Source of the DNA: Candidatus Hermodarchaeota archaeon
GTDB taxonomy: Archaea > Asgardarchaeota > Heimdallarchaeia > Hodarchaeales > Hodarchaeaceae
NCBI GenBank assembly: GCA_048886185.1
Contig: JBHLKY010000007.1
Location: 120,001-152,000 of the forward strand
Length of the DNA stretch: 32,000 nucleotides
Direction of reading: 5' to 3'
Position numbers and translations under genes: made by a program. Below the pieces are notes generated by a model. The model did not search any database. It was given only the letters and a program-made list of their open reading frames with translations, and was not told the origin of the DNA. Shown here piece by piece: positions 5,924-17,736 of this stretch (its first letter is position 1; each line of letters starts with the position of its first letter).

Positions 5924-7009
5924 TTATGTGAATGAATATTCATCTAGCCCTAATTCTTTTTGTATTATAAGCAGATCTTGAAGGACAGAGGAACCTATAG
6001 GAATTCCTTTCTTTGTACGTTCGATTTCCATTTCATATTCCTTCTCGCCAGCAGTATAAATTCTTGATTCTCCAGGAGCTTTTTTCGATCTTCTTAGTTC
6101 CCGTAAAATATTACCTGCAATCTTTTTAAATACTTCAAGAGGGATGAAACTTTCAATATTGATAGCTAGAAAGAAATGGCCGAGTTTATAGCCCTTTTCT
6201 AATGTTAAATCTTTCATAAAAGGGCCTCCTGTTAATGCTCCAGCGAGTATTTCAACTGCAGTTCCATATCCATATCCCTTATGCCCCCCTAAAGTTTCTC
6301 CTGCACCTCCTAATGGTAATAAGGCAGCAGTTCCTTTTATTAATTTATTTAGAATTGCCACGGTATCTGTAGATTGTTCTCCGCTAGAATCAATGACCCA
6401 TCCACTTGGTGAGGGGGTTTTTGTCCTTGCAAGTACTTCAATTTTTCCTCTCTGAGTAATTGAGGTAGCACAATCAATCAAAAAAGGAAATTCCTCATCA
6501 GTGGGGCATCCAATCGTCAATGGATTGGTTCCAAGCATTGGTTCAACACCGAATGTCGGTGCTATAGACGGACGAGCATTTGTTAATGTTATTCCAATCA
6601 TTCCTTCCTGGATTGCCATTAGTGAATAATATCCTGCAATGCCATAATGGGTTGAATTACGAACTGCAACAGCACCTGTACCATATTTTCTTGCTTTTTT
6701 AATGGCTAGGTTCATTGCATTATATCCTGCAACATGACCCATTCCATGGCCTGCGTCAATCAATGCTGTGGTTTCTGATTCTTTTACTATTTCAAATGTA
6801 GTAACTGGTTTTTGGAAATTGGCAAGGATTCGGTCATAGTACATTTTTAATCGTTGTACACCATGGGATTCTATTCCACGAAGATCGGAACTGATTAAAA
6901 CATCAGCACAAATTTTAGCATCTTCTTTTGGCACTTTAAGGCCAATAAAAACATCTTGCATGAAATTATGTAAAGTTTTAGCGTCTATGCGAATAATATC
7001 TTCAGTCAT
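5924..7009 (-). CDS. Ldh_2 family 2-hydroxyacid oxidoreductase (malate/L-lactate/sulfolactate dehydrogenase; AllD/ComC-like)
   Basis: 361 aa. Motifs RGIESHG, NSTHYGIAGYY, LGTNPL, LLPLGG...GHKGYG and GHFFLAINI. Confidence 0.88.
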   Translation of the reverse strand: MTEDIIRIDAKTLHNFMQDVFIGLKVPKEDAKICADVLISSDLRGIESHGVQRLKMYYDRILANFQKPVTTFEIVKESETTALIDAGHGMGHVAGYNAMNLAIKKARKYGTGAVAVRNSTHYGIAGYYSLMAIQEGMIGITLTNARPSIAPTFGVEPMLGTNPLTIGCPTDEEFPFLIDCATSITQRGKIEVLARTKTPSPSGWVIDSSGEQSTDTVAILNKLIKGTAALLPLGGAGETLGGHKGYGYGTAVEILAGALTGGPFMKDLTLEKGYKLGHFFLAINIESFIPLEVFKKIAGNILRELRRSKKAPGESRIYTAGEKEYEMEIERTKKGIPIGSSVLQDLLIIQKELGLDEYSFT

Positions 7010-7113: not shown

Positions 7114-8556
7114 CTATTTTAAGTTATTAGCTGCAATTTTATCTAATTCATTTTTTAGGTTTTCATCAACAGCTTGTCTAGGTGGACGTTTGCTTAATTT
7201 AATAGCAATTTCTTTTGCTCTGTTACGAGCTGATGTTTCACCACCTTTCCTCCATTGATCACGGGTCTCTCTATTTATGATCTGTAAATTTTCAACTGTA
7301 AAAGGGAAATAAAGCTCTTTTCTGAATAAACTTAGCGTAGTTGGGTGAGATAGTAATGAAATATTAGCATCATAATCACTAAGAATATCTTGAGCAAATG
7401 GTACGCCATGATCTGTGATCCCTTGAAGAAGATGTTTAACCATTCCTGCGATTTCATTATCAATGATTAATTTCTCGAAGCTTTGAGTTGATTCGAAATC
7501 CAGCATACCAGGCCCAGAAATCATATTGATTCCAGCGAGACCAGCTAGCAATGCCCCCATGCCTCCCTCAAATCCTGCTTGAGCATCAGGAACTTTTGAG
7601 TCAGATAATGTCATATATGCATGTGTTGGTAGATTTAAGAACTTTCCCATTTGAGCATCTGCAATATTAATCATCATTGTCTCAATTGCCCCCATGGGGG
7701 TCGTTCCATTCCTCATATCAAATACTGCTGGAGATCCTCCCCATATAACAGGAGAATTTCTCTTGGCTAGTTGTGAAATTACAAGTCCTGCCAAAGATTC
7801 AGCGGTATGTTGAGTGACACAGCCAATTAAAGTTATAGGAGCTGTTGAACCTGCAAGAGGCATACTAATGAATTCTGATGGGATTCCGCTTCGTGCTGCG
7901 TCAATTACAGATTGAGTAGTTAGATTTGACCACATCAAGGGGGGACTTGGGCATGCATCAAAAATCGCCAAAGGTTTTTCAGCTAGTTTTTCCTTTGAAG
8001 TTCTTGTTGCCTCCAATAACTCTTGCATTATAGAAAAGCTTTCTATTCTAAAAGTGCCTGTAACAATCGGTTTGGAACAATTAATTAATGCGATGTACAA
8101 ACGATGCCAATCTTGAGCATTATTAGGGACATCAGAACAAACAAGTGAGGTTGATTGAGCTGCAAAATTGGGTAGATGGTCCACAATTTTTGAAAACATT
8201 ATGAAATCTGAAGATAATGCTTCTCGTATTGTCTTTGTTTCTAGATCTTGTACGAAAATTGCAGCAGATCCAGGATCAAAGTGAATATTATCTTTTGAGA
8301 GCTGGATTACTTCTCTTCCTTCTCTATCATATAATTTGATTTCAGAGGGAGCGTTGGTGCGTAGCTTTTCAACTAGATCCTCTGGTATAAAGTACCTTAA
8401 ATTTTTATAATGGATCCCTTCCTCCTGTAATAAGCTTTGAGCATCAGGATTTTCAATTATTACTCCTTGGTTGTGAAGAATAGCTTTAGCTTCATTGAAT
8501 ATCTTTTTCATGTATTCATTGGTCAATAATTCAGTTTTGGGTCTTAAAATTGTCAA
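7114..8556 (-). CDS. mttB: Trimethylamine methyltransferase (MttB) superfamily protein, non-pyrrolysine type
   Basis: 480 aa. Motifs SPLMW, SMPLAGSTAPITL, DMRNG and SDSKVPDAQAGFE. The position equivalent to Pyl (LP-x6-[O]-SD) is Leu317, codon TTA at 7608-7606. TTG start with GGAAGATGA SD-like motif. Confidence 0.9.
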   Translation of the reverse strand: MTILRPKTELLTNEYMKKIFNEAKAILHNQGVIIENPDAQSLLQEEGIHYKNLRYFIPEDLVEKLRTNAPSEIKLYDREGREVIQLSKDNIHFDPGSAAIFVQDLETKTIREALSSDFIMFSKIVDHLPNFAAQSTSLVCSDVPNNAQDWHRLYIALINCSKPIVTGTFRIESFSIMQELLEATRTSKEKLAEKPLAIFDACPSPPLMWSNLTTQSVIDAARSGIPSEFISMPLAGSTAPITLIGCVTQHTAESLAGLVISQLAKRNSPVIWGGSPAVFDMRNGTTPMGAIETMMINIADAQMGKFLNLPTHAYMTLSDSKVPDAQAGFEGGMGALLAGLAGINMISGPGMLDFESTQSFEKLIIDNEIAGMVKHLLQGITDHGVPFAQDILSDYDANISLLSHPTTLSLFRKELYFPFTVENLQIINRETRDQWRKGGETSARNRAKEIAIKLSKRPPRQAVDENLKNELDKIAANNLK

Positions 8557-8562
8557 AAACTA

Positions 8563-9450
8563 TCATCTTCCAGTAAGTTCGTCAATAATTTTGCGTAATA
8601 GGTTAATATGGTTTGGTTCAGTACCACAACATCCTCCAACAATTTGGCCATCATAATCAAGAATATGTTTGATATCTTCTGCAAATGTCTCAGGGGATTG
8701 TTTGTAGACTGATTTTCCATTTTCTAGTTTAGGACTGCCAGCGTTTGGTTTTATTGAAAGTGGGATATCTGGAGCAGCAGCTCTCATAGTTTTTATCAGC
8801 TCAAGAAAATCATTACTACTAAGAGTGCAGTTCGCTCCAACAACAGTTACTCCTGAATCAATTAATTCAGAGACACAGTCAAAAACAGTGTTTCCCATAA
8901 TAGTAAAGAATCCCCTTGGGGTTCTTTGATAAGTCATACTAGCAATAATAGGTTTGTCTGATTCAGTTTGAATAGCTAATATTGCTGCTTTCATCTCTCG
9001 GATATCAGAGAATGTTTCAATGTGCCACGCATCAATATAGGGTGCGAGCGCTTGTGCTTGCAACTGAAAGCTCTGTTTTAAATCATCAATAGATATCTTA
9101 CCTACTGGCGGAAGGAATTCTCCAGAAGGGCCAATATCACCTATCACGCACCTTCCTGGAGGACAGACACTTCTTAATATTTCAGCTGAGCTTTTATTAA
9201 TGTCTTTGAGTAGGTTTTGAATACCATAGTTTTGTAAAGCAATATTATTTGCTCTAAAAGTAGCAGTTTGAACCAGATCGCTCCCCGCTTTGTAATATTG
9301 ATCAAAAACTTCTTTAATATCATTAGGACGATCTAAATTCCATTTATCAGGAGCTTCTCCTGGTTTTAATCCTCGACGAATTAATTCGGTACCCATAGCT
9401 CCATCAAACAGAAGAATTTTCTTTTCGCGTAATAAGGAGAGAAAATCCAC
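8563..9450 (-). CDS. Stand-alone homocysteine S-methyltransferase domain (MetH N-terminal Hcy/Zn-binding module)
   Basis: 295 aa. Motifs DGAMGTE, GDIGPSG, ETFSD, GANC, KPNAG and GGCCGT, giving three Zn-ligand Cys. No pterin-binding or cobalamin domain is attached. GTG start with GGTGA SD. Confidence 0.9.
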   Translation of the reverse strand: MDFLSLLREKKILLFDGAMGTELIRRGLKPGEAPDKWNLDRPNDIKEVFDQYYKAGSDLVQTATFRANNIALQNYGIQNLLKDINKSSAEILRSVCPPGRCVIGDIGPSGEFLPPVGKISIDDLKQSFQLQAQALAPYIDAWHIETFSDIREMKAAILAIQTESDKPIIASMTYQRTPRGFFTIMGNTVFDCVSELIDSGVTVVGANCTLSSNDFLELIKTMRAAAPDIPLSIKPNAGSPKLENGKSVYKQSPETFAEDIKHILDYDGQIVGGCCGTEPNHINLLRKIIDELTGR

Positions 9451-9471
9451 GAATTATCTCACCATAATAGA

Positions 9472-10116
9472 TTATTCAAGACCTAGTAACTGTATAGCTA
9501 ATGTAACTGCAGCTACTGCATTTTCAGCATAACCATCTGCACGACACTCGTCTACCCACTTTGATGTAACAGGAGCACCTCCTAGCATTACCTTGAATTT
9601 ATTACGAATGCCCTGTTCTTCGAGTAACTCAATAATTTTCTTTTGTCCTATCATTGTAGTAGTCAGTAGAGCAGATACACCAATAAGATCAGCTTGCTGC
9701 TTTTCTGCCTCTGCGATAATGGTTTCAGCTTTCACATCTGCCCCTAGGTCAATTACATCAAATCCATTAGCTTTTAACATTGTGGAGACTATTGTTTTTC
9801 CAATGGTATGAATATCACCCTCAATTGTGGCCATAACAACCTTACCTTTCGTCTTTCTTTCCCCAGAACCTTCCATATGGGGCGTAATAATATCGACAGC
9901 TTCTTGCATCACTTGCGCACCTCGCATAAGTTCTGGAAGAAAGAATTCACCTGCATCCCATAAATCACCAACTTTTTTGATGCCATTACCAAAGCCTTTT
10001 TCAATTACTTCAAGCAATGGGAGGTTTTCGTCTAAAGCTTTTTGTGCAAGGCTTTTTGCTTTGTCCATATCAAGTTCCACAACACTATTAGCCATCTCTT
10101 CGTAGATTGGTTCCAT
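9472..10116 (-). CDS. Cobalamin-binding corrinoid protein (MttC/MtbC/MtgC type)
   Basis: Cap domain FFLPELMRGA, B12 motif DIHTIG (DxHxxG), SALLTTT and MLGGAP. ATG at 10116 is preferred over GTG at 10125 because an AGGTG SD lies just upstream of it. Confidence 0.92.
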   Translation of the reverse strand: MEPIYEEMANSVVELDMDKAKSLAQKALDENLPLLEVIEKGFGNGIKKVGDLWDAGEFFLPELMRGAQVMQEAVDIITPHMEGSGERKTKGKVVMATIEGDIHTIGKTIVSTMLKANGFDVIDLGADVKAETIIAEAEKQQADLIGVSALLTTTMIGQKKIIELLEEQGIRNKFKVMLGGAPVTSKWVDECRADGYAENAVAAVTLAIQLLGLE

Positions 10117-10253
10117 TCTAAACACCTTTTGAGCTAGGAAACAGAAATTTCTTTGCTAACATAAATTTAACACGAAATAAATTTAAATTATGACATTTAT
10201 TATTAGTTTTCATAATTTACCTTTTTAACAGTAAGTTTTAAGTAATAACTTTG

Positions 10254-11663
10254 CTAATGAAAACGTCTTTTAAATTCTTTCATCTGAATAACTTTAGAAG
10301 TCAATCGTGCCTCTTCTGCAGCAAAAGCCATCATATGGCTTTCTAGTGAAGATCTGGCACTAGTTAAAGGTTCTTCTAAACCGAATTGAATTGATTTAAT
10401 AAATGACCGAATCAGCCTTGGATCTCCTCCCCCATGCCCACTACCAGCATTTAAAAGTGTTTTTTGATCCATAATGATTTCTTCGGTTTCCTTAAGATGA
10501 TCATAGAGAACTATTTTCTCCTTTGTTGTAAGGAACTCTCCAATCAAAGTCCCTTTTGTCCCATCTATGCGAATTGTTCTCCCCTCTAAATGTGAACAAC
10601 CATGCATTGTGAAAGTAGCTGTGACTCCATTCTGAAATTCAATTATTGTAACTTGGTGATCAACAACATCATTCCCTGCAAAATAGACACACCGCCCGTA
10701 CGGTCCAGTTTGTAAAGCATCCCACTTTCCTTCTAAAGATAAGTTTTCTGTAATGGTAGAAACCGGCCATCCTTGATATTCATACACTTTTCGAAAAAGT
10801 GGTAAACTTTTAAGCTTTTTAAATAATTGCGGATGGTTAATCGCTATATTAGCAATAAATTTGACGTATCCAGAACCTGCCTCTTGTGCTATACGAAGAA
10901 GGGGAACAATATCAATGTAAATCCGTGGGGCAAAGTATTCACAGCAATTAGCTACAGAACATCCATCTAAACATCGTTTTGTGGCTCCGTGAGGTGCTTT
11001 TTCCTCCTTAAAATGCTTTAAACTTCCAAAAGAACTAATTGATTTAGGAAAACTTCCTGCTATCCAGTATAGAAGGTCTAAATCATGTACACTCTTCGTG
11101 AGTATCATCGGACTGGATTTAGACAAATTAGCCCAATTTCCTCTAACAAAGGAATGACTCATATGCCAATATGAGACGTTTTCACAATGATCGATGGTAA
11201 TGATGTCCCCAATTTTACCTAATTGGATTATTTCATGAATTTTTTTGAAAAAGGGGGCATATCGTAATACTTGTGCTATACATAATTGTGACTTGACTTC
11301 ATCAGATTTCTGTACTAGCTGGATACACTCTTCAGGTTGGGTAGCCATGGGTTTCTCTAATAATACTTGATAACCTAAGGCTAACGCTTGTAAGGTTGGA
11401 GCGGTGTGCATTTGGTCTTGAGTACAAATGATTGCTGCATCTGCGAGTTTTGATTTTAAACCCTCTTCCCATGTTCTGAATTGATGAGTGGAAGGAATAG
11501 CGTGTGCTTGAGCAAAAATTTTTCTTCTAATGGGATGGGGTTCAGCAACAGCTATGATTTTCAATTCGTGAGGATGATCTAGAGCATATTGTCCATATAC
11601 ATCTTTCCCACGATTCCCAGCTCCAATCACTATCGCTGTTAAGCATTCTTCTGAATCAGCCAA
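10254..11663 (-). CDS. Gfo/Idh/MocA family oxidoreductase
   Basis: Rossmann motif IGAGNRG, LLEKP, HDLDL, Cys-rich insert CLDGC...CCEY, and C-terminal GHGGGD. AAGGAG SD before a TTG start. Confidence 0.88.
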   Translation of the reverse strand: MADSEECLTAIVIGAGNRGKDVYGQYALDHPHELKIIAVAEPHPIRRKIFAQAHAIPSTHQFRTWEEGLKSKLADAAIICTQDQMHTAPTLQALALGYQVLLEKPMATQPEECIQLVQKSDEVKSQLCIAQVLRYAPFFKKIHEIIQLGKIGDIITIDHCENVSYWHMSHSFVRGNWANLSKSSPMILTKSVHDLDLLYWIAGSFPKSISSFGSLKHFKEEKAPHGATKRCLDGCSVANCCEYFAPRIYIDIVPLLRIAQEAGSGYVKFIANIAINHPQLFKKLKSLPLFRKVYEYQGWPVSTITENLSLEGKWDALQTGPYGRCVYFAGNDVVDHQVTIIEFQNGVTATFTMHGCSHLEGRTIRIDGTKGTLIGEFLTTKEKIVLYDHLKETEEIIMDQKTLLNAGSGHGGGDPRLIRSFIKSIQFGLEEPLTSARSSLESHMMAFAAEEARLTSKVIQMKEFKRRFH

Positions 11664-13339: not shown

Positions 13340-14155
13340 GTGAAGGAAAATTTTTCTTTGAATTCTGTTACCAATGAAAATTGTTTGCAGTTCATTCAGA
13401 AATTACCTGATAAGTCTATTGATATCGTACTTACAGATCCACCTTACGCCATATCTTCGGGTAATAAGTTGTCAATGAGAAATATTAAAAAACAAAAGGG
13501 ATTTGGTGGAGATTGGAACATTATTAATGAAAAATGGGATATTTTTTCATTTCAGGATTATTGCAGATTGATAGAAAATATGTTGAAAGAAACGTACAGG
13601 GTTTTAAAACCAACAGGAACAGTATTTATCTGTGGAACTTACCATAATATAGGAATTATTAACTATTTTGCTCTTAAAACTACTTATAATATTATCAATG
13701 AAATTATCTGGTTTAAGAGGAACGCTTTTCCAAATTTATCCCAAAAATGTATGACCGCTTCTCACGAGAACATTTTATGGTTAAGTAAATCAGATTCTTG
13801 GAATTATAATTATGAAGCCATAAAAGAAACAAGTTATCATTTTGATAAGATAAAAGAATCTGATAAGCAATTACGGTCCGTATGGGATATTCCAAATAAT
13901 AAAGAGAAGGATGAGCTATTATATCGGACGGTTTTTACAGATCAATCATATTGGATTAAATCCCAAAAACCTCTTAGACTCATTGATAGATGCATAGAAC
14001 TGGCTTCCCAACCCGGAGATATTATCGCAGATTGGTTTAGTGGGTCAGGGACAACCCTAGTTTCAGCCTCAAATCATTCTTTATCCTTTATTGGATGTGA
14101 AATCAACCCCAAATATGTTGAAGTAATCCGTTGGCGATTAGAAAGAGGAATTTAA
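13340..14155 (+). CDS. Orphan beta-class amino-DNA methyltransferase (probably N6-adenine; DpnA/M.HinfI-like)
   Basis: Motif IV DPPY precedes motif I DWFSGSGTT (beta order). Also GTYHNI, PNL...SHENILW, QLRSVW and QKP. No restriction endonuclease next to it. Confidence 0.85.
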   Translation: MKENFSLNSVTNENCLQFIQKLPDKSIDIVLTDPPYAISSGNKLSMRNIKKQKGFGGDWNIINEKWDIFSFQDYCRLIENMLKETYRVLKPTGTVFICGTYHNIGIINYFALKTTYNIINEIIWFKRNAFPNLSQKCMTASHENILWLSKSDSWNYNYEAIKETSYHFDKIKESDKQLRSVWDIPNNKEKDELLYRTVFTDQSYWIKSQKPLRLIDRCIELASQPGDIIADWFSGSGTTLVSASNHSLSFIGCEINPKYVEVIRWRLERGI

Positions 14156-15218: not shown

Positions 15219-15974
15219 GTGACTATTAGAGCAACTGGTAGAATAACACGCGTTTTAAAACAAGCAATGCCACACGGTTTTAGGGGAGTCTATAAAATTA
15301 ACATTGTTGGCTCAACGGGGGCTGGAAAGACTGAGTTTCTGCGATATTTATTAAAAGATCTATTTGAACCCAGTACAGAAGCACCAAGACGTTCAAAAAC
15401 CGAAAATACGGTAGATTCAACACACACTTGGTTTCATATTGGTCCTCAGAGCAAACAATCGACGACAACTATAGCTTTAAACCCAGTAGGGATTTTATTA
15501 GTGCGGACCTTATTTAACTCCATTGAATTCCATCCAGTTAATAAAGTTGACGAATTGCTTTTGCGTGATGACATTGAAGAAATATGGCAGTTAATATTCT
15601 TTGATAATGCTGGTCAAGAAAGATTTGACTTTATGCCACAAATCACAATGCGTGGTGCTGATGCGGTAATAGTTCTAGCAGATGGAACCAATATGGCTAG
15701 TATAGAAAAGATTTCATATTTTTTAGAACTTATACAAGATGAAGAGTACAGAGCAAGTGGTGGATTAATTCGGATCCCCGTTTTTATTCTTTTAAATAAG
15801 AAAGATTTAATTGAGTACGGTTGTTTTATTGGCCTTAAAAGTGTTCGGCATATGATCGGTTCCTCTGATGAATATGATTTTTATGAAACATCAATGAAAA
15901 CTGGAGATGGAGTTGATGATACAATTAGATCACTGATCTCCCGCCTTCATGAAAAAGCTATTGAAAAGAGATAA
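15219..15974 (+). CDS. Ras-superfamily small GTPase with insertions
   Basis: G1 GSTGAGKT (31-38), probable G2 in STTTIALN, G3 DNAGQERF, G4 NKKD, G5 ETSMK. Confidence 0.88.
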   Translation: MTIRATGRITRVLKQAMPHGFRGVYKINIVGSTGAGKTEFLRYLLKDLFEPSTEAPRRSKTENTVDSTHTWFHIGPQSKQSTTTIALNPVGILLVRTLFNSIEFHPVNKVDELLLRDDIEEIWQLIFFDNAGQERFDFMPQITMRGADAVIVLADGTNMASIEKISYFLELIQDEEYRASGGLIRIPVFILLNKKDLIEYGCFIGLKSVRHMIGSSDEYDFYETSMKTGDGVDDTIRSLISRLHEKAIEKR

Positions 15975-16755: not shown

Positions 16756-17736
16756 TCATTTATTCTTATAACGGGGATTTTCTGCTTCAAAAATTATTCG
16801 TTCTATTGTTTTATCAAGGTGATAATTCTCAGGGTAGATTTTGGAATTTTTTGAAGGAGTTGCTTTTTTACCAACTTGTCGTGAAAAGGTAAATTTTGTA
16901 ATATCTTCTCCTGTTTTATCTACATACCGTCGTAGTGTTTTAAGGTTTGGAAAGTTATCATTTTCATCAGGAACACCATTTAGACGATGATTAGCTATAT
17001 CCACATACTTTTTGACTATCTCACATCCAATAAAACGTCGATTATTATTTTTAGCTACAACTGCAGTAGTACCAGATCCTATGAACGGATCTAGAACAAT
17101 GTCATTTAATTCAGTTGTCGAAAGAATAATACGTGTAACTAAATCTTCAGGAAACTGACATGGATGTTCTGTCTGTTCTTCGTGGTTGTGTTTGACATTT
17201 CTAAAAGCCCAAACGTCTCCTGGGTTCTTTCCACGAGGGTCACTAGTAAATTTGCCGTAGTCCATACCTTGGCGATAATTCTTCTTTTTAGGATAAATTT
17301 GTGGCACACGAATGTCATCTAGGAAGAACTTATAGTTATCAGATTTGGAAAACCAAAGAATTGTTTCGTGACGGTTCGAAAATTTATGTTTCGCATGCGT
17401 TCCATGCTGACGAATCCAGATTATTCTATTCCTTGGAATGAAACCTAATTTAACAAAAATTGGAAAAATAACTGCATCCCATGGGAAATGAGCTCCATTG
17501 TTTCCAACATATGTTCCAACTTGATAGAAAATGGATCCTGTGATCTTAAGTATACGCCAACATTCAGTTAAAACCTTATTAGACCACTCTAAGTATTGGT
17601 TTAAAGTTGTTTTTTTCTCATACTCTTTACCTATTCCATAAGGGGGAGAAGTGACAATCAGATCAATAGTTTCTTCTGAAAGTTTTTTAGAGAATTCAAT
17701 AAAGTCCTCATTATAGATTCTATTGTATTTAATCAT
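16756..17736 (-). CDS. Orphan beta-class amino-DNA methyltransferase (SPPY type, probably N4-cytosine)
   Basis: TSPPY, RHETILWF, KNPGDVW, HPCQFP and DPFIGSGTT, plus an approximately 70-aa C-terminal extension. It starts 17 bp after the gltX stop, with a GAGGT SD. Confidence 0.87.
   Translation of the reverse strand: MIKYNRIYNEDFIEFSKKLSEETIDLIVTSPPYGIGKEYEKKTTLNQYLEWSNKVLTECWRILKITGSIFYQVGTYVGNNGAHFPWDAVIFPIFVKLGFIPRNRIIWIRQHGTHAKHKFSNRHETILWFSKSDNYKFFLDDIRVPQIYPKKKNYRQGMDYGKFTSDPRGKNPGDVWAFRNVKHNHEEQTEHPCQFPEDLVTRIILSTTELNDIVLDPFIGSGTTAVVAKNNNRRFIGCEIVKKYVDIANHRLNGVPDENDNFPNLKTLRRYVDKTGEDITKFTFSRQVGKKATPSKNSKIYPENYHLDKTIERIIFEAENPRYKNK

Follow-up and report, generated by a model that had tools for sequence, protein, structure and literature searches.

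A conserved gene trio of a Hodarchaeales archaeon as a probable cobalamin-dependent, pterin-independent methionine synthase made of separate proteins

The stretch of DNA analysed here, referred to as the window, is 32 kb of a Hodarchaeales genome (contig C7:120001-152000 of a 4.84-Mb assembly that is 96% complete; coordinates are counted within the window). Our subject is a trio of adjacent genes within it, encoding a corrinoid carrier protein, a stand-alone homocysteine S-methyltransferase (HcyMT) and a non-pyrrolysine member of the MttB methyltransferase superfamily (hereafter the MttB protein). The trio lies in a run of five co-oriented minus-strand genes:

10254-11663, minus strand: GFO/IDH/MocA-family NAD(P) oxidoreductase (Pfam PF01408, PF02894, PF22725), directly upstream of the trio
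9472-10116, minus strand: corrinoid (cobalamin-binding) carrier protein, with a PF02607 cap and a PF02310 Rossmann B12 domain bearing the DxHxxG His-on motif
8563-9450, minus strand: stand-alone HcyMT of the MetH N-terminal homocysteine (Hcy)/Zn type (PF02574)
7114-8556, minus strand: non-pyrrolysine MttB-superfamily methyltransferase (PF06253), the putative methyl-donor:corrinoid module
5924-7009, minus strand: Ldh_2-family (malate/L-lactate/sulfolactate-type) dehydrogenase (PF02615, 399 bits), 105 bp downstream of the trio

The open reading frame (ORF) of the corrinoid protein spans 9472-10125 (217 aa), with a probable ATG start at 10116, and those of HcyMT and the MttB protein comprise 295 and 480 aa, the latter free of internal stops. 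Read off the sequence, the intergenic gaps are 21 bp between the corrinoid-protein and HcyMT genes and 6 bp between the HcyMT and MttB genes; the description of three co-oriented genes with short gaps in an earlier first-pass annotation of this DNA was thus correct, coordinates included. No pterin-binding, MtrH, URO-D or reactivase gene lies within the window, and Pfam scans agreed with the same annotation that the cluster holds neither a pterin-binding nor a coenzyme M (CoM) methyltransferase gene.

All three proteins could be assigned to families by profile and motif. The corrinoid protein matched the Pfam B12-binding_2 and B12-binding models with 69.7 and 104.5 bits, respectively, and passed TIGR02370 ('methyltransferase cognate corrinoid protein') with 233.7 bits against a cut-off of 215.3; its EGDIHxIGK motif, which includes D104-x-H106-x-x-G109, is unvarying across 71 orthologues. 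HcyMT, the single PF02574 (S-methyl_trans) protein of the genome (217.4 bits), has as its best solved relative the Hcy domain of Thermotoga maritima MetH (1Q7M, 157 bits), structures of betaine-homocysteine S-methyltransferase (BHMT) scoring 64 bits. Cys208, Cys274 and Cys275 (in GxNC and GGCCGT) and an E-T-x-S-D motif are unvarying across 73 orthologues, and the profile, the three zinc cysteines and the substrate motifs place HcyMT in the homocysteine S-methyltransferase family as a MetH-type Hcy module. Its score against the BHMT equivalog NF005718 was 203 bits, below the cut-off of 338, and it is not a human-type BHMT; the adjoining corrinoid protein argues for a B12-dependent mechanism, unlike that of BHMT.

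The MttB protein is likewise the single PF06253 (MTTB) protein of the genome, matching over residues 6-473 with 245.2 bits against a cut-off of 25, and it falls short of trimethylamine:corrinoid MttB proper (TIGR02369, 346.9 bits against 525). Leu317 stands opposite pyrrolysine (Pyl) 334 of Methanosarcina barkeri MttB (7XCL), confirming the leucine previously noted at this position; Desulfitobacterium hafniense MtgB (2QNE) has Leu there too, as do 81 of 82 orthologues of the MttB protein. A serine is aligned with Tyr364 of the M. barkeri enzyme. Scores against Pyl-MttB (180 bits) and glycine betaine MtgB (2QNE, 176.6 bits; 9YCE, 176.1 bits) were nearly equal and, since the MttB protein is equally far from both, its substrate is not readable from homology.

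We then considered the remainder of the genome, in which the first-pass annotation had recommended a search for MtgA/AcsE, RamA, MetH and MetE. No homologue of MeTr, AcsE, MtgA, MtrH or the MetH folate module was detected in this 96%-complete assembly. The sole PF00809 (Pterin_bind) protein is a dihydropteroate synthase (DHPS; TIGR01496, 198 bits against 162.6) whose gene adjoins that of a CofE-like ligase; NF005719 had no match in the genome-wide search and gave 18 bits on the DHPS protein itself. A pterin-binding partner of the Hcy domain encoded elsewhere, which the first-pass annotation had named as a ground for refutation, was not found, DHPS being the only PF00809 protein and MtrH being absent. 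Four URO-D-family (MT2-like) proteins are encoded, all unlinked to the trio, and no pterin- or CoM-type partner for the trio was identified in the cluster or the genome. Full-length MetH is also missing: scores against TIGR02082 were 147 and 161 bits with a cut-off of 1010, and the pterin and activation modules are absent from the genome, the latter even when the search was made with the activation-like proteins of related families described below. The earlier statement that there is no corrinoid reactivase holds for the window and fails for the genome, where a RACo/RamA-type activase of 612 aa is encoded on contig C23. A split MetE pair (Meth_synt_1 and Meth_synt_2 proteins; compare Price et al. 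2021) was found at C6:5396-8957 (L015), directly upstream of MetK, which is a bacterial-type three-domain S-adenosylmethionine (SAM) synthetase, and MTHFR is encoded as well.

A survey of gene order across Asgard metagenome-assembled genomes (MAGs), also recommended at the outset, showed that the arrangement is widely kept, contrary to the lack of conserved order that the first-pass annotation had named as grounds for refutation. HcyMT matches occurred in 162 of 400 Asgard genomes, and the order corrinoid protein, HcyMT, MttB was retained in all 30 of the best Asgard loci. In a scan of 80 loci of MttB orthologues, taking one genome per species, the trio was present in 71, mostly from Promethearchaeota (Loki) and Hodarchaeota; recurrence on this scale is more than chance would give. 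Identity between MttB orthologues across classes is 61-80%. No neighbour beyond the trio was common to more than about 30 of the 80 loci. In an MttB tree whose tips were labelled by gene context, the MttBs of trios formed one clade (support 100), whose sister group comprises the MttBs of two further families in this class (f4 and f7); next to branch were two relatives with a corrinoid protein and no HcyMT.

Families f4 and f7 carry a four-gene form of the operon, in which the corrinoid-protein gene again comes first and a gene for a protein of ∼217 aa is inserted between those for HcyMT and MttB; metagenome contigs carrying more distant relatives of MttB have the same four-gene order. The ∼217-aa protein matches PF02965, the MetH activation domain, and a profile built from ten of these proteins matched T. 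maritima TM0269 (1J6R), an activation protein that stands alone, with an E value of 6.6e-11; an R-x-S-P-G-Y motif is unvarying among them. With this activation-like gene, the f4 and f7 operons contain every MetH module except the folate one, in whose place MttB stands.

The distribution of alternative methionine routes was determined in a census of 83 genomes of the class, including families f1 (this genus, n=21), f4 (n=31) and f7 (n=12). MtrH was found in none of the genomes of these three families (0/21, 0/31 and 0/12, respectively), and across all 83 genomes the MeTr-type domain occurred solely inside four fused MetH proteins, weaker matches being DHPS. MetE-type proteins (PF01717) were present in 10 of 21 f1 genomes, 0 of 31 in f4 and 0 of 12 in f7, and MTHFR (PF02219) in about half of f1, with none above the cut-off in f4 and 0 of 12 in f7; where MTHFR is present it tracks the split MetE, which it often adjoins, and not the trio. 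Neither MetE, MTHFR, MtrH nor MeTr was found in f4 or f7, which leaves the cassette as the one recognisable methionine synthase of these families; that it stands alone there argues against a hidden folate partner. Canonical supply of methyl-tetrahydrofolate (methyl-THF) is also missing in the two families, which speaks for a donor other than folate and against an MttB that merely binds methyl-folate. The distributions of RACo (PF14574) and the activation gene are complementary: f1 genomes have no activation gene and most encode RACo (16 of 21, plus this one), whereas in f4 and f7, which carry the activation gene in the operon, RACo is rare (1/31 and 1/12, respectively), suggesting that RACo and the in-operon activation protein are two alternative ways to rescue oxidised corrinoid.

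We consider it probable from these sequence data that the trio encodes a methionine synthase assembled from separate proteins, a homocysteine methyltransferase that depends on cobalamin and not on a pterin. The original proposal that MetH is split here, with a non-Pyl MttB in the place of its folate module, is backed by domains, motifs and gene order, and the interpretation as a whole is partly supported, by the domain content, the 21- and 6-bp spacing, the conserved order, the missing pterin partner and the coherent MttB clade. In the mechanism that we propose, the MttB-family TIM-barrel protein would, as expected from its family membership, take the methyl group of a small methylated compound and place it on the Co(I) corrinoid of the carrier. 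HcyMT, by virtue of its homology to the MetH Hcy domain and its zinc and substrate motifs, would then pass the methyl group of methyl-Co(III) to homocysteine, yielding methionine and Co(I). Carrier oxidised to Co(II) would be rescued by the unlinked RACo/RamA-type ATP-dependent activase, and in the sister lineages instead by the MetH-type SAM-binding activation protein encoded inside the operon. By analogy with related enzymes, and given the lack of MTHFR in the sister lineages, our best guess for the methyl donor is a quaternary amine, betaine or choline for instance, which may come from the environment. In this genome the trio would run beside the folate-dependent route formed by split MetE and MTHFR.

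Several observations weigh against this reading. Split MetE and MTHFR make the trio a second methionine route that is not required in this organism, and the claim that folate is bypassed does not extend to the genome, where the bypass is not total. Orthologues of MttB occur without the other two trio genes at five loci (L059, L127, L130, L135 and P0124). Neither transporters for betaine or choline nor downstream catabolic genes were found to be consistently linked to the trio; an EamA transporter lies immediately downstream in only 12 of 67 trio loci, on the opposite strand, and was not used as evidence, nor was the MFS_2 transporter of the window, which is weakly similar to an MFS protein beside a lone MttB relative. 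Finally, the absences in the census were judged on MAGs that are 60-100% complete.

The source of the methyl group can also be read differently. Were the MttB protein a non-orthologous replacement of the MetH folate domain that uses endogenous methyl-THF or methyl-pterin, the trio would be a housekeeping MetH, and its housekeeping-like operon context devoid of conserved catabolic neighbours, the strong conservation of MttB across classes, the status of the cassette as sole recognisable methionine synthase in f4 and f7 and the presence of MTHFR in this genome would all be accommodated. However, f4 and f7 have the cassette and no MTHFR above the cut-off, hence no canonical source of methyl-THF; MTHFR follows split MetE rather than the trio; and the characterised members of the MttB superfamily in the literature cited here all use methylammonium substrates. 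We therefore regard an endogenous donor as unlikely.

Whether methionine is the physiological product can also be questioned, since zinc thiol methyltransferases act on several thiols, and the four unlinked URO-D-family proteins together with a second cluster of corrinoid protein and non-Pyl MtmB suggest a wider methylotrophic capacity. The trio might then serve catabolic demethylation, the Hcy-type zinc enzyme methylating another thiol as a methyl sink. This is improbable given that HcyMT is closest to the Hcy domains of MetH and keeps their motifs, that the sister operons carry a MetH-specific activation protein, and that the sister families are without any other recognisable methionine synthase.

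The trio, read as a pterin-independent methionine synthase, has precedents among known systems, the nearest being bacterial. Williams et al. (2022, Environ Microbiol, PMC9324843) reported a four-gene cluster in Ca. Electryoneota and 'diverse bacteria' and hypothesized that it encodes a new corrinoid-dependent route to methionine, fed by an unknown, non-folate methyl donor. The three core modules and the hypothesis are the same as ours, and f4 and f7 have exactly the four-gene content of that cluster. The window, in contrast, holds three of the four genes, adjacent to one another; the SAM-binding activation protein is absent genome-wide and a RACo-type activase is encoded elsewhere, so that the window does not carry the four-gene cluster itself but a reduced variant of it. 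Moreover, only bacteria are named in that study, whereas the present case is an Asgard archaeon, and those bacteria also had full MetH, the second route here being split MetE. Judged by its gene content, the window cassette is a three-gene archaeal variant, without the activation gene, of this hypothesized kind of methionine synthase. The first-pass view that such wiring is uncharacterised in archaea holds to the extent that we found no paper describing an archaeal or Asgard operon of this kind, in a search that did not take in Supplementary Table S4 of Williams et al., but the idea had already been proposed for bacteria. What is new here is the class-wide census, with its lack of a pterin partner, the cassette standing alone in two MTHFR-less families and the interchange of RACo and activation protein.

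The MtgBCDE system of Ruegeria pomeroyi, Phaeobacter inhibens and Sinorhizobium meliloti (PMC12478193) is similar in that it brings together MtgB of the MttB family, MtgC as corrinoid protein and MtgE as a free-standing Hcy module, reactivation being RamA-like and one carrier serving both methionine synthesis and amine demethylation. Genetics in R. pomeroyi showed MtgC, as well as the pterin protein MtgD, to be required both for making methionine and for demethylating glycine betaine (Mausz et al. 2025, PMC12478193). The differences are that MtgD, on which both functions depend there, is missing here, leaving no bidirectional pterin-binding protein and thus no MtgBCDE system in this genome; that the genes are scattered there and in one operon here; and that the hosts are aerobic Proteobacteria, whose MtgC was set apart from the carriers of anaerobes and archaea (PMC12478193). 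The old annotation of the MtgE homologue of S. meliloti coincides with the NCBI name of NF005718 ('betaine--homocysteine S-methyltransferase'), a tie by name only, HcyMT lying below the cut-off of that model. That the trio is a split MetH of this Rhodobacterales type, drawing its methyl groups mainly from an unlinked pterin-binding methyltransferase with MttB a side input for amine catabolism, is the least likely of the alternatives: the unlinked yet essential MtgD of R. pomeroyi and the MtrH of Loki family f20 (133 of 135 genomes) make it conceivable, but MeTr, AcsE, MtgA, MtrH and MetH-folate homologues are lacking in this genome and likewise across f1, f4 and f7, and MttB is fixed in the operon beside HcyMT.

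Other systems share parts of the inferred pathway. The Hcy, cap and cobalamin modules are homologous to those of T. maritima MetH (TM0268, with separate TM0269; 1Q7M, 1J6R), and the sister lineages resemble T. maritima in having a separate activation protein; the window form differs in lacking the folate module, in having its modules as separate polypeptides and in placing an MttB barrel in the donor position. The three-component systems MtgB/MtgC/MtgA of D. hafniense, those of MtpB, MtcB and MtyB of Eubacterium limosum and MttB/MttC/MtbA of Methanosarcina likewise comprise an MttB-superfamily first methyltransferase (MT1), a TIGR02370-type corrinoid protein and a RamA-type activase, but their second methyltransferase is a pterin-binding protein (MtgA/MtqA) or a URO-D-type CoM methylase, whereas here it is a MetH-type Hcy module. 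The MttB protein of the window does not appear to be an orthologue of any of these MT1 proteins (∼177-180 bits against both Pyl-MttB and MtgB). MesA, MesB and MesC (Price et al. 2021, PMC7857596) also make methionine from a methyl-corrinoid protein and not from methyl-folate; they are, however, MetE-like (PF01717) and fed by the corrinoid Fe-S protein of the Wood-Ljungdahl pathway, as opposed to a MetH-like enzyme with an MttB feeder. In papers on the Asgard groups Atabeyarchaeia and Freyarchaeia, MttB and corrinoid genes are linked to MtrH and tetrahydromethanopterin, not to homocysteine.

A bolder extension, which we put forward tentatively and which may well prove wrong, is that the cassette serves as sole methionine synthase in at least two families (f4 and f7) of Heimdallarchaeia, the class of archaea closest to eukaryotes, such that methionine and SAM would be regenerated only from vitamin B12 and an exogenous methylated amine, and that Hodarchaeales swapped the SAM-dependent activation protein for the ATP-dependent RACo. 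If true, the dependency of f4 and f7 on B12 and amines would be a SAR11-like nutritional one that could explain part of their resistance to cultivation. If the main reading holds, much of Asgard (Lokiarchaeia and Heimdallarchaeia, including Hodarchaeales) would tie its methyl cycle to B12 and to methylated amines such as betaines or choline rather than folate. Growth media might then be enriched in B12 and quaternary amines, and there would be a bearing on the fate of osmolyte-derived methyl groups in sediments and on reconstructions of one-carbon metabolism at the eukaryote root. The 2022 bacterial hypothesis would be extended to archaea and would gain a phyletic argument not available from bacteria, namely lineages that lack MTHFR and have the cassette as their only methionine synthase.

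Some further features of the f4 and f7 loci were recorded. The activation-like proteins (L139-L160) have an unvarying C-terminal Cys-x2-Cys-x4-Cys outside the stretch aligned to TM0269 (1J6R). The cassette (L141-L148) is flanked upstream by a HEAT-repeat (PBS-lyase-like) protein and downstream by a flavoprotein of the geranylgeranyl-reductase family, at L143:6620-7366 and L143:1543-2847 in an example locus; both were identified by scan in L143 and the flavoprotein also in L145, other loci being judged by ORF size and position. These two flanking proteins may be accessory or electron-donor components. Both families also encode another HcyMT paralogue (∼42% identical) that stands alone, near which lies neither a corrinoid-protein nor an MttB gene (L144, L146), and in L144 an Ldh_2-family gene lies near it, recalling the Ldh_2 gene beside the MttB gene of the window. 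An ordinary MetH of ∼820 aa, in which Hcy, pterin and B12 modules are fused, is found in one Asgard family, f19. We had considered whether the published 'metH' of Prometheoarchaeum (PMC9931769) was this cassette, an identification that was dropped, f19 being possibly the Prometheoarchaeum lineage and having a true fused MetH.

Among the Loki genomes, one genus (L070, L072 and L077; also L036 and L050) has a second, very divergent MttB paralogue, ∼28-33% identical, directly upstream of the corrinoid protein, which gives two candidate donor modules per carrier. Two contigs with close MttB relatives are filed in bacterial bins. L102, in a Nanopelagicaceae bin, has the full trio with an MttB that nests among Loki sequences, and is probably misbinned; L138, in a Eubacteriales bin, encodes RamA, a corrinoid protein and MttB, without HcyMT.

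The genes on either side of the trio are conserved over short phylogenetic distances. In loci at genus level (L023-L032 and L060-L066) the GFO gene is found upstream of the trio, and it is a conserved neighbour only inside the genus; the Ldh_2 gene follows the trio in L060, L063, L064 and L065, close relatives only, and the NCBIfam matches of its product are all below threshold. A GFO/IDH/MocA gene also precedes the second corrinoid cluster of the genome (C2:72228-75519; L016:6228-9519), which encodes a corrinoid protein 45% identical to that of the window and a non-Pyl MtmB homologue of 461 aa with no stop, and has no Hcy module. Non-Pyl MtmB homologues have recently been connected with a methanogen's use of tetramethylammonium and choline (PMC13044021). 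The two GFO proteins preceding the corrinoid clusters are 29% identical over their N-terminal half, and because of this a shared dedicated role for the two paralogues is not arguable. Elsewhere in the window, a gene for a Ras/Roc-like small GTPase (15219-15974, plus strand) lies between two N6/N4 DNA methylase genes (13340-14155, plus strand, and 16756-17736, minus strand).

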